A DNA stretch of 64,000 nt from Escherichia phage BF15, in sequence record MW822007.1. The stretch is one strand, 5' to 3'. Shown piece after piece: positions 16,861 to 61,433 of this stretch. Each line of letters opens with the position of its first letter. The stretch's first letter is position 1. The position numbers and the translations under genes were made by a program. The notes below the pieces were generated by a model. It ran no database searches. It was not told the DNA's origin and saw only the letters and a program-made list of their open reading frames with translations.

Positions 16861-16913
16861 CCTCATGTTATGTCAGTAAGTCTACTATAACACAACACGA
16901 GGGACTTGTAAAC
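16861..16913 (-). promoter_or_regulatory. T4-type early promoter plus 5' leader; 53-bp cassette identical to the one upstream of alc
   Basis: Minus strand reads GTTTAC-17 nt-TTATAG…CATGAGGA; exact copy at 32288-32340. Confidence 0.55.
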
Positions 16914-25045: not shown

Positions 25046-25411
25046 TTAAATATCAAATTCGTTAAGAACTACATCAAAGATTGCTTTAAGATGCTCAGGT
25101 TTAGCTCTGTTACTCAGAATATGACGAATCCAAGTTTTAACCAGAAGCTTACGATTGACGCCATTCCAGCAAGGATGAGTACCTAAATCACGTTGACGGA
25201 AATCATCATCTAATGCGATTTTAAAAGAAGAACCTTCTTTCGTGATTGAAACCGTGATGCCATTTTCAAATCGCATATAAACGTAGTTAGGAGTCATATA
25301 CTGTTCAATTTCACATACTGATCCATTTTGATGTTTCCAAAGGCAGATAGTATCAATAGAACCTGCAATACCGTTAGAAACATATTTACGTTCAAAGTTA
25401 ATGTAGTTCAT
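25046..25411 (-). CDS. hypothetical protein
   Basis: 121-aa ORF downstream of an early promoter. Confidence 0.5.
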   Translation of the reverse strand: MNYINFERKYVSNGIAGSIDTICLWKHQNGSVCEIEQYMTPNYVYMRFENGITVSITKEGSSFKIALDDDFRQRDLGTHPCWNGVNRKLLVKTWIRHILSNRAKPEHLKAIFDVVLNEFDI

Positions 25412-25437
25412 TTTTATTCTCCGAGATATTTAATTGC

Positions 25438-25477
25438 GGTACAGGTATATAATATCATATCCTGTACCAAAGTAAAC
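25438..25477 (-). promoter_or_regulatory. early promoter with 8-bp inverted repeat flanking the -10 element
   Basis: Minus strand GTTTAC-17 nt-TATTAT; GGTACAGG (25438-25445) and CCTGTACC (25461-25468) bracket the -10 region. Confidence 0.5.
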
Positions 25478-25479
25478 AA

Positions 25480-25812
25480 TTATTTTACTACTTTCCAATG
25501 TTGCATGTCAAGTTTACCAACTTTTTTCATCTTCTCAATTAAGCGTTCGGCACGCTGGCGAGCTGTAACATAATACCATTCACCTAATTCATTTTGTTCA
25601 ATTTTTCCAACGATTACTGTATTCAATTCATAAATCCAACCAGTAAAGAAATTATGAACTTGGATTGTAAAGGTGAAATCTGTTCCCATACCTTCTGTTG
25701 TTTCTACTTCAATAATATCACCTTCAACTGCCATTAAGAACCACATAGTTTCGTTATATTCACCATTGAAGCATTTAGTTTTAACTGTGGCGTTCAGATT
25801 AATCGTTTTCAT
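25480..25812 (-). CDS. hypothetical protein
   Basis: 110-aa ORF with upstream early promoter. Confidence 0.5.
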   Translation of the reverse strand: MKTINLNATVKTKCFNGEYNETMWFLMAVEGDIIEVETTEGMGTDFTFTIQVHNFFTGWIYELNTVIVGKIEQNELGEWYYVTARQRAERLIEKMKKVGKLDMQHWKVVK

Positions 25813-25839
25813 TTTATTCTCCTTTGTTTGTGTAAGATA

Positions 25840-25869
25840 ATACTATCACAAAGGAACTATACTGTAAAC
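25840..25869 (-). promoter_or_regulatory. early promoter
   Basis: Minus strand GTTTAC followed at about 18 nt by TAGTAT. Confidence 0.4.
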
Positions 25870-25888: not shown

Positions 25889-25917
25889 AAAATAAAAAAG
25901 GACTCCCGAAGGAGTCC
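25889..25917 (-). terminator. rho-independent terminator
   Basis: GGACTCC-TTCG-GGAGTCC hairpin on the minus strand followed by TTTTTTATTTT. Confidence 0.6.
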
Positions 25918-25922
25918 TCAAC

Positions 25923-28978: not shown

Positions 28979-28998
28979 TTCAATTTCCTCATTTGTTT

Positions 28999-29037
28999 GG
29001 TAGAGCTATAATATCACAACTCTACCGTAAAGTAAAC
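28999..29037 (-). promoter_or_regulatory. early promoter with 7-bp inverted repeat flanking the -10 element
   Basis: Forward GGTAGAG…CTCTACC bracket CTATAATATCACAA; GTTTAC -35 on the minus strand. Confidence 0.45.
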
Positions 29038-29039
29038 TA

Positions 29040-29315
29040 TTAAATTGCTTTGAATTCTGATGTCTGTGATTCAAAGCGAATATCGCCTTTGATAACTAAC
29101 TCAGCATCAAGACCAAATACGACAATGATATGCGCGGAACCTGGATACAGCGTAATTGCAATAGAATCCACTTGGTCTGGAAGCAAAGCGTTCAATACAT
29201 GAGTCACTTGAGCGTGGATTCGAAGTTCAGCTGCATTATCAAGCTTTTCAAACATATTATTAGCGATAATTTGGCTAAACACTACTTCTACGATTTTAGA
29301 ATAAGTCGGAAACAT
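29040..29315 (-). CDS. hypothetical protein (cd.3 position)
   Basis: 91-aa ORF. Confidence 0.45.
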   Translation of the reverse strand: MFPTYSKIVEVVFSQIIANNMFEKLDNAAELRIHAQVTHVLNALLPDQVDSIAITLYPGSAHIIVVFGLDAELVIKGDIRFESQTSEFKAI

Positions 29316-32279: not shown

Positions 32280-32287
32280 CATAAAGT

Positions 32288-32340
32288 CCTCATGTTATGT
32301 CAGTAAGTCTACTATAACACAACACGAGGGACTTGTAAAC
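32288..32340 (-). promoter_or_regulatory. early promoter plus leader; identical copy of the 16861-16913 cassette
   Basis: 53 nt identical to the cassette at 16861-16913, including -35 GTTTAC, -10 and GAGGA RBS. Confidence 0.55.
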
Positions 32341-40708: not shown

Positions 40709-40726
40709 TTTATTCTCCTTAGTTGA

Positions 40727-40763
40727 TAGGGTAATAATATCACACTACTACCCTACTGTAAAC
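40727..40763 (-). promoter_or_regulatory. early promoter with 7-bp inverted repeat flanking the -10 element
   Basis: Forward TAGGGTA…TACCCTA bracket ATAATATCACACTAC; GTTTAC -35 on the minus strand. Confidence 0.45.
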
Positions 40764-41128
40764 TACTTTTTGAAAGTTTTTCGCAAAAGTTCAATGATTT
40801 CATCTACATTGTTTTCGTCTACAATGCAATGAATTTTTGTTACGCCAGAAATCTTGTCTTCGACTTCATCTTCTTCAGAAATCGGTTCTTTATACTCGCG
40901 GAAACAATGAAATTCGTCTTCGCAGACGTTGAAGTAAAAATGCTTTCCATTTGCGCATTCAATGTGTTTTATTACTCTAAATCCATCAGCAGAGAAAGCT
41001 TCTTTAACTTCAAACCATCCACCATTTTCTTGAATAATTTTAACTATTGATGAATTAGAACGTGGGCGATAATTAATAAATGTATTAATAAGTCTTGGAA
41101 CAAGCTCATACTTTTTGCCAATATACAT
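40763..41128 (-). CDS. hypothetical protein
   Basis: 121-aa ORF. Confidence 0.45.
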   Translation of the reverse strand: MYIGKKYELVPRLINTFINYRPRSNSSIVKIIQENGGWFEVKEAFSADGFRVIKHIECANGKHFYFNVCEDEFHCFREYKEPISEEDEVEDKISGVTKIHCIVDENNVDEIIELLRKTFKK

Positions 41129-61153: not shown

Positions 61154-61159
61154 TTTCTG

Positions 61160-61205
61160 TTCCTCCGTAGTTGATAGGGTAATAGTACCACGGAAGAACA
61201 GTCTT
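61160..61205 (-). promoter_or_regulatory. early promoter
   Basis: Minus strand GTTTAC then TGGTACTATTACCCTATCAACTAC, related to the conserved family. Confidence 0.4.
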
Positions 61206-61433
61206 GTAAACAACTTTTTTAAAAATATTCGTAATAAATGTGAATACCAACTACTACCGCTGAAACCTGTGCAACCCACCACGCGCAAGCAATAAGTACA
61301 GAATTCATAATTTTCATAATAACCTCATTACAAAAGTAAATGTTAAACAAATTACTGGAATACTAATTAACCAAACAAAACACCACCATAGTGAACTCAT
61401 AGTTCAATCTCAACCATTTTCATTTCATTTTAC

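Follow-up and report, generated by a model that had tools for sequence, protein, structure and literature searches.

T4-type early promoters within RNA hairpins that probably act on read-through transcripts: a PeSL-like arrangement in a T-even phage

The closest described relative of the arrangement reported here is the promoter-early stem-loop (PeSL), which was defined in the T4-type phages RB49 and phi1 as a strong σ70-like early promoter combined with a stem-loop, positioned between a stop codon and the next Shine-Dalgarno sequence (SD) and ATG (Arbiol et al. 2010, PMC2839356). The stem-loops were described as 'overlapping the -10 box', and reporter evidence for termination was obtained for one RB49-type stem-loop only (PMC2839356). 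PeSLs were later extended to PST/T4 and nt-1/KVP40; in the T-even pair PST/T4, the stem-loops were placed 'just upstream' of the promoter, with the consensus AGNA-loop-TCNT (Comeau et al. 2014, PMC4122927). T4 itself offers known cases of a promoter lying in a hairpin (e, soc, 49 and I-TevI): long transcripts fold there, and those started at the internal promoter are without the 5' arm (PMC3014915, section 29). Searching the literature on dyad symmetry in the early promoters of T4, and on 3' ends mapped in its early regions, we found only the two PeSL papers and the 2010 reviews. Two other systems offer points of comparison. Bacterial intercistronic stabilizers of the REP or malE-malF type are hairpins free of a U-tract, which could block 3'-to-5' exonucleases after downstream cleavage, and in phage N4 the virion RNA polymerase, a phage enzyme, reads promoters that consist of a DNA hairpin with a loop of 3 nt.

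The window analyzed here is a 64-kb stretch of phage DNA. Its first-pass annotation had pointed to three early promoters (sites 1 to 3) whose -10 element is flanked by perfect inverted repeats, with arms that differ between sites and stay complementary. All three repeats are indeed perfect and their coordinates right (Table 1), and at all three the arms differ in sequence yet remain complementary. The core ATAATATCA between the arms is the reverse complement of TGATATTAT, that is, the minus-strand extended -10 (TGn + TATTAT); it occurs eight times in the window against 2.07 expected. On the minus strand, each site displays the T4-type early promoter pattern of GTTTAC, 16-18 nt and TGnTATTAT, with A-rich sequence upstream. 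The genes downstream are 30.7 (site 1), cd.2 (site 2) and an 80-aa frd.3-like gene (site 3). The same promoters, repeats included, are found in T4, whose GenBank record names the site 2 promoter Pe133295, an early promoter, in agreement with the first assignment.

A 2-kb query around site 1 matched 965 phage records, the top ones being Tequatrovirus (T4-like) genomes at 97-98% identity, and rIII and 30.7/30.8 are among the annotated genes under the match. The minus-strand genes of the region are 30.7, 30.8, rIII, 31, cd, cd.1-cd.5, frd and 32. A search of the entire 64-kb window with Rfam at gathering thresholds gave zero matches. We counted 12 clear early promoters in the window, of which seven carry a bracketing hairpin (including a weaker one at 25845), and 32 early-promoter candidates in T4, of which four segments (about 157 of 169 kb) were examined.

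Table 1. Features of the hairpin-bearing early promoters in the window, with their positions and strands
Feature	Position	Strand	Remarks
Site 1 inverted repeat, GGTACAGG / CCTGTACC	25438-25445 / 25461-25468	+	perfect
Site 2 inverted repeat, GGTAGAG / CTCTACC	28999-29005 / 29020-29026	+	perfect
Site 3 inverted repeat, TAGGGTA / TACCCTA	40727-40733 / 40749-40755	+	perfect
Site 1 -35 GTTTAC, gene 30.7 promoter	25472-25477	-	gene 30.8 stop (25480-25482) 2 nt upstream
Site 1 5' arm GGTACAGG	25461-25468	-	within promoter spacer
Site 1 extended -10 TGATATTAT	25449-25457	-	top of hairpin
Site 1 3' arm CCTGTACC	25438-25445	-	about -3 to +5 of inferred start site
Site 1 SD GGAG and ATG	25419-25422 and 25409-25411	-	both unpaired
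Site 2 -35 GTTTAC, cd.2 promoter (= T4 Pe133295)	29032-29037	-	upstream stop 29040-29042
Site 2 5' arm GGTAGAG	29020-29026	-	
Site 2 extended -10 TGATATTAT	29008-29016	-	
Site 2 3' arm CTCTACC	28999-29005	-	SD GAGG 28987-28990
Site 3 -35 GTTTAC, promoter of 80-aa frd.3-like gene	40758-40763	-	upstream stop TAG (40763-40765) overlaps its G
Site 3 5' arm TAGGGTA	40749-40755	-	
Site 3 extended -10 TGATATTAT	40734-40742	-	
Site 3 3' arm TACCCTA	40727-40733	-	immediately after -10; SD AGGAG 40715-40719
Cassette copy 1, promoter + leader	16861-16913	-	-23 kcal/mol, z -4.8; SD masked
Copy 1 helix, CCTCGTGTTGTGTT with GACATAACATGAGG	16889-16902 with 16861-16874	-	
Cassette copy 2, promoter + leader	32284-32340	-	-24.4 kcal/mol, z -6.0; SD masked
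Copy 2 helix, AAGTCC+TCGTGTTGTGTT with GACATAACATGA+GGACTT		-	
P30.8 promoter	25820-25869	-	spacer TCCTTTGT (25848-25855) pairs with ACAAAGGA (25820-25827), covering SD
Early promoter, 15-bp spacer-SD helix CTGTTCTTCCGTGGT / ACTACGGAGGAACAG	61157-61211	-	-22.7 kcal/mol, z -4.8
Canonical intrinsic terminator GAGGACTCC-TTCG-GGAGTCCTT	25898-25919	-	upstream of P30.8

At each of the three sites, the entire gap between two co-directional genes is taken up by the promoter and its 5' leader: the upstream stop codon lies 0-2 nt before the G of GTTTAC, and SD and ATG follow within 30-45 nt downstream. In sense orientation, the promoter spacer holds the 5' arm; the 3' arm begins 0-3 nt past the -10 hexamer and runs across the inferred start, from about -6 to +5. 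Each perfect repeat measures 7-8 bp. In RNA, the TGn region also pairs with the -10 through A-U and G.U pairs, which bring the stems to 12-14 bp with loops of 3-4 nt, so that the -10 is partly inside the RNA stem and not just in the loop. In none of the three minimum-energy folds is the SD paired, and the 3' arm ends 6-15 nt before it. In most of these promoters, the A-rich UP-element region falls within the final codons of the preceding gene, whose stop codon is 0-5 nt away from the -35.

Two further observations concern sites 1 and 2. The last part of gene 30.8 contains a near-consensus σ70 promoter (25482-25511, minus strand; TTGACA, 18 nt, TAAAAT; 11 of 12 matches), which precedes the 30.7 promoter by 33 nt and whose transcript would start a few nt before the site 1 hairpin and carry it at the 5' end. 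For site 2, the T4 GenBank record holds a misc_feature at T4 133300-133313 (window 29006-29019), worded 'inverted complement of previously reported sequence; corrects the early promoter Pe133295'. This interval is the exact 14-nt loop, including the -10, between the 7-bp arms, and because it spans exactly the loop, the loop appears to have been flipped between the arms in the older clone or sequence; such a flip would inactivate the promoter. A search of the window and about 88 related-phage loci found no natural inversion of the loop between the arms.

These sites resemble PeSLs in several respects. Each has a strong σ70-type early promoter with an AT-rich upstream region and a stable stem-loop overlapping the -10 (7-8 bp perfect; -15.5 to -18.2 kcal/mol), and each lies between the stop codon of a small gene and the next SD and ATG. 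As with PeSLs, the motif is repeated in regions of small non-essential genes, and it may be linked to the gain, loss and duplication of cassettes. The stems of RB49 and phi1 are typically GGGG...CCCC, whereas the three sites have mixed-sequence cores of 7-8 bp plus A-U and G.U pairs. Further, the T-even PeSL stem-loops reported in 2014 match the canonical terminators found here, for example the one upstream of P30.8, and not the bracketing hairpins. The finding is thus a rediscovery of the PeSL class that overlaps the -10, in a T-even phage where this class was not pointed out. What may go beyond the published PeSL description is that hairpins and terminators nearly exclude each other, that sense RNA is preferred, and that in one class of early promoters the spacer pairs with the SD; each point is described below.

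The repeats are much more frequent at early promoters than chance would allow. In the window, a perfect repeat of 7 bp or more links the spacer to the downstream region in four of the 12 early promoters, as against 3% per promoter when halves of different promoters were joined, and 0.32 promoters expected with shuffled spacers. A wider survey covered four T4 segments, two Mosigvirus genomes, one Dhakavirus, one Gaprivervirus and 42 IMG/VR loci around cd, and its 216 promoters were reduced to 179 unique ones and to 114 non-redundant clusters. Among these 114 clusters, 45 possess a perfect repeat of at least 7 bp, compared with 5.6% of chimeric controls (P about 1e-26), and 29 possess one of at least 9 bp, compared with 0.9% of chimeras. 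The read-through leaders of the same survey fold with a mean of -21.2 kcal/mol, against -16.6 for the chimeras (P 1e-15). Two geometries were distinguished among the 45 hairpin promoters: in 28, the class of the three sites, the 3' arm directly follows the -10 and leaves the SD untouched, and the remaining 17 have a 3' arm that covers the SD. An IMG/VR pattern scan for GTTTAC-N14-16-TGATATTAT yielded mainly unrelated contigs and was left out of the survey, and one metagenome scan with Cd.2 found six near-identical relatives only. Additionally, T4 has a 13-bp inverted repeat, TCCTAGAATTGTG / CACAATTCTAGGA, around a near-palindromic 10-nt AT-rich -10 at about 65,790 (minus strand), upstream of ipII. 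The promoter pattern missed this repeat; PeSL-like sequences had been noted at the internal-protein locus in the 1990s.

We compared the stability of the three hairpins as RNA and as DNA. Sense RNA of sites 1, 2 and 3 folds at -18.2, -16.4 and -15.5 kcal/mol (z -3.4, -3.6 and -3.4), antisense RNA at -15.0, -9.6 and -7.2 kcal/mol, and sense DNA at -8.4, -5.2 and -4.0 kcal/mol (z -2.6, -1.7 and -0.7); either DNA strand folds far worse than sense or antisense RNA. All six window hairpins fold better as sense than as antisense RNA, and across the 114 clusters the sense RNA is the more stable by 1.6 kcal/mol (P 5.6e-5), a gap that exceeds that of the chimeras (P 0.03). On the sense strand, non-Watson-Crick positions in or beside the helices are G.T rather than A.C at 50:21, with 49% G.T under the null (P 2.7e-4). 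The promoter motif may bias the G.T count in the inner flank; with this flank left out, the ratio is 26:21 with 41% expected (P 0.03), a modest excess. These results favor a hairpin in sense RNA over one in DNA. The first-pass annotation had proposed folding the regions both ways and had allowed for a stem-loop in either DNA or RNA: sense RNA folds best and DNA weakest, and of the two options RNA from read-through sense transcripts is favored.

A role in DNA would nevertheless be conceivable, with cruciforms or single-strand hairpins modulating the promoter, for instance in the unexplained shut-off of early promoters, or with the repeats serving as hot spots of recombination and cassette exchange. 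Perfect repeats form equally on both DNA strands, PeSLs have been tied to cassette shuffling and mini-circles (PMC2839356), and early-promoter shut-off is 'not completely understood' (PMC3014915). The same reading draws on the duplicated cassette at 16889 and 32316, on the site 2 loop once reported inverted according to the T4 annotation, and on the promoter cassettes of sites 2 and 3, which some close relatives have and others lack. Certain phages with a downstream protein 96-99% identical are missing the site 2 or 3 cassette, and a different gene abuts the SD; these cassettes would therefore mark boundaries of gain and loss. Against a role in DNA stand the weak DNA folds, the greater stability of sense over antisense RNA, and the imperfect positions, which favor sense-strand G.T and would stabilize RNA only. 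The DNA loops measure about 4-6 nt at site 1 and about 12 and 9 nt at sites 2 and 3 (14-15 nt on the opposite strand at sites 2 and 3), and loops of 9-15 nt make cruciform extrusion costly. The three sites thus do not show the stable, short-looped DNA hairpin of an N4-type or supercoil-extruded hairpin promoter. As in N4 hairpin promoters, an inverted repeat belongs to the early promoter; unlike those, they are ordinary σ70 promoters, and their hairpin is best supported in RNA. We consider an action of the repeats in DNA improbable.

Orthologous promoters were compared for the conservation of pairing. At P30.7, four genera (Tequatrovirus, Mosigvirus, Dhakavirus and Gaprivervirus) have either unchanged or extended arms, the longest being TTTGGTACAGGT/ACCTGTACCAAA, whereas their loops and 3' flanks diverge. 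Covariation at site 1 is absent within these four genera, where the arms are simply invariant, and this invariance, taken alone, would also fit a sequence-specific site. In more distant relatives, whose downstream protein is 39-55% identical, the arms of P30.7 are unrelated, as in GCTGATTGAGTGT, TTGGTGTAGGAGTA (with G.U), TTTGTAGGAGAC and ACTGAGGTTA, and some of these orthologs form a helix to the Shine-Dalgarno sequence instead. Fold energies range from -19 to -22 kcal/mol (z -3.6 to -6.1) for the orthologs of P30.7 and from -15.6 to -16.3 kcal/mol (z -1.9 to -4.4) for those of the frd.3-like promoter. In an alignment of six Pcd.2 sequences from two or three lineages, 94.9% of cells are paired; three pairs have changed on both sides (A-U to G-C, G-C to A-U and U-A to C-G), and at four pairs a one-sided change leads to G.U. 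The frd.3-like promoter has three arm sets at one position: TAGGGTA/TACCCTA, AGGCTAT/ATAGCCT, and ATGGGGCT/GGTCCCAT with two G.U. Orthologs thus keep the hairpin with different arms, in the comparison that the first-pass annotation had suggested. Its central claim, that the structure is selected and not a single protein-binding sequence, is upheld by the enrichment across the 114 promoters, the unrelated arms at P30.7 and the compensatory changes at Pcd.2.

The comparison of orthologs bears on two further explanations. Being palindromic, the repeats could be recognized by a dimeric DNA-binding protein, from phage or host, such as a repressor of early promoters; GGTA...TACC is common to the three window sites, and the site 1 arms are invariant in four genera. 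Yet GGTA and TACC are spaced 23, 20 and 15 nt apart at the three sites, the arms are unrelated across promoters and across orthologs, and their positions slide relative to the -10. A site for one single dimeric protein was rejected because of this variation of arm sequence and spacing, and dimeric binding sites in general appear very improbable. The repeats could also be functionless by-products, if template switching perfects quasi-palindromes and recombination between promoter cassettes spreads them. This would suit the perfection of the repeats, the flipped site 2 loop in the older T4 sequence, and the duplicated cassette, in which identity ends exactly at the -35 and the SD. It sits poorly with arms kept across four genera while loops and flanks diverge, with unrelated arms at the same orthologous promoter, and with the G.U excess; together with the gene-junction context and the functional logic of the spacer-to-SD helices, to which we now turn, these points make an origin as mere by-products quite improbable.

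The hairpins are strongly associated with the context of the gene junction. Where the upstream stop abuts the -35 and a terminator is absent, 42 of 78 promoters in the survey carry a hairpin, compared with three of 36 in other contexts (P 1.5e-6). With an upstream terminator, a hairpin is found at one of 23 promoters, against 44 of 91 without (P 7e-5), although many of the terminator cases are P30.8 orthologs, so that the independent cases are fewer than the counts and the P value suggest. Across genera, P30.8 has an upstream terminator and a weak or absent hairpin, and the adjacent P30.7 has a strong hairpin and no terminator. In the window, exceptional hairpins are found at promoters 25454, 29013, 40739, 16889, 32316 and 61187, and more weakly at 25845; at six of these seven, a stop codon abuts and a terminator is absent. 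Among the window promoters without such a hairpin, 58053 and 41448 are preceded by a canonical terminator, 20-30 nt before the -35, 44748 and 55588 have no called upstream ORF ending nearby, and 61680 has only a small hairpin inside the spacer. The terminators of 58053 and 41448 lie about 53-74 nt upstream of the -10 and, like the one upstream of P30.8, consist of a GC-rich stem, a tetraloop-sized loop and a T-run. Hairpins placed where a stop abuts the -35, together with their near-exclusion with terminators, indicate that they most likely act on read-through transcripts. The near-exclusion is predicted by a role in read-through RNA and not by a DNA-level role at the promoter.

This mutual near-exclusion suggests that the bracketing hairpins do a job related to that of true terminators, and like Rho-independent terminators they are stable RNA hairpins directly after a coding region. 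They differ from these in lacking a U-tract, in their A-rich tail and in an upper stem rich in A-U and G.U. A U-tract is absent after the stems of the three sites, whose tails are GCAATTAA, AAACAAAT and TCAACTAA, and a terminator scan called none there; in the bracketing class as a whole, the 8 nt past the 3' arm contain 48% A and 20% T. A reading as intrinsic (Rho-independent) terminators was rejected here, and the bracketing hairpins are not classical terminators, because the U-tract is absent. For the same reason, the terminator function of the RB49-type stem-loop is not simply transferable to the three sites; judged from the sequence, the terminator role proposed for PeSLs is not supported at them. 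We also considered whether a hairpin might protect the upstream message after a downstream GGAG cut by RegB, and found no support for this idea, since GGAG is not enriched downstream of the bracketing hairpins (43%, versus 46% without a hairpin).

In the second geometry, the 3' arm pairs with the SD. An anti-SD motif (CTCC or TCCTC) directly follows the -35, and the pairing reaches up to 15 bp. In the window this geometry occurs at promoters 25845, 16889, 32316 and 61187, as in the 17 hairpin promoters of the survey mentioned above. The window helices span 61157-61201, 25820-25855, 16861-16902 and 32284-32334 on the minus strand, and helices of this type occur at many loci in relatives. For 16861 and 32288, the first-pass annotation had described a shorter AAGTC/GACTT version of the bracketing repeat; this motif is present, but as a fragment of a much longer helix that masks the SD. 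The two loci are copies of a 53-nt promoter-plus-leader cassette (16861-16913 and 32290-32340, minus strand), 15 kb apart and both present in T4. Their identity extends from the -35 exactly to the Shine-Dalgarno sequence, and the differing 3' junction of each copy adds pairs with a different part of the same spacer. In this class, the read-through RNA is plausibly masked for translation and the transcript from the promoter itself is not, a functional logic that argues against a mere by-product. The masking geometry is that of T4 e, soc, 49 and I-TevI, but at early promoters, and we found no description in the literature of spacer-to-SD pairing at early promoters. The three bracketing sites share with those T4 genes a promoter within a hairpin and, with the start deduced from spacing, own transcripts without the 5' arm. 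They differ in that the T4 genes have late promoters with the 3' arm over the SD or AUG, whereas the three sites are early promoters with a free SD, and translational masking is not evident at them because the SD is unpaired.

Taken together, we put the probability at roughly 70% that the three sites are T4-type early promoters inside RNA hairpins that act on read-through RNA, in the arrangement of a PeSL. In this reading, the arms would sit in the parts of the promoter that are free to vary, namely the spacer and about -6 to +8, with the constrained TGn/-10 atop the hairpin. As start sites usually lie about 7 nt past the -10, transcripts from the promoter itself would begin inside the 3' arm and would thus be unable to form the hairpin. 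Both arms would be present only in sense transcripts read through from upstream promoters, and read-through at these junctions is to be expected from the established polycistronic early RNA of T4 and the absence of terminators. The hairpin might then be an intercistronic insulator, marking read-through RNA or governing its handling where there is no room for a separate terminator. One candidate effect is attenuation or pausing of read-through, and another is a barrier against decay of the upstream message. A third is damped translation of the downstream gene from long transcripts, via the ribosome standby region 6-15 nt upstream of the SD. Processing by RNase III is unlikely for stems of 12-14 bp. 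Stabilizers of the REP or malE-malF type are likewise hairpins without a U-tract between the cistrons of a polycistronic RNA; they do not overlap a promoter, as the hairpins of the three sites do.

T4 is a reference for phage gene control, and structure in its long early transcripts has been little studied. The present results point to a selected RNA hairpin on about 40% of the compact early promoters of T4-like phages, where a terminator is absent. In the PeSL model, the stem-loop has so far been treated chiefly as a terminator and recombination site. For annotation, the bracketing hairpins should not be taken as terminators, and in phage engineering the insertion or deletion of cassettes at these junctions would alter the structures. 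If the proposed reading is true, each such gene would have two kinds of message, a structured read-through RNA and an unstructured RNA from its own promoter, which can be distinguished and tested. More speculatively, and in our judgment unlikely though worth stating, the bracketing hairpins and the spacer-to-SD helices could be two forms of one genome-wide T-even system, in which packed early genes would be expressed only from their own unstructured transcript, and read-through copies would be structurally marked and poorly translated or differently processed. Such a system, if it exists, would tie protein output to the firing of early promoters and would help to explain the abrupt fall of early protein synthesis after early-promoter shut-off.
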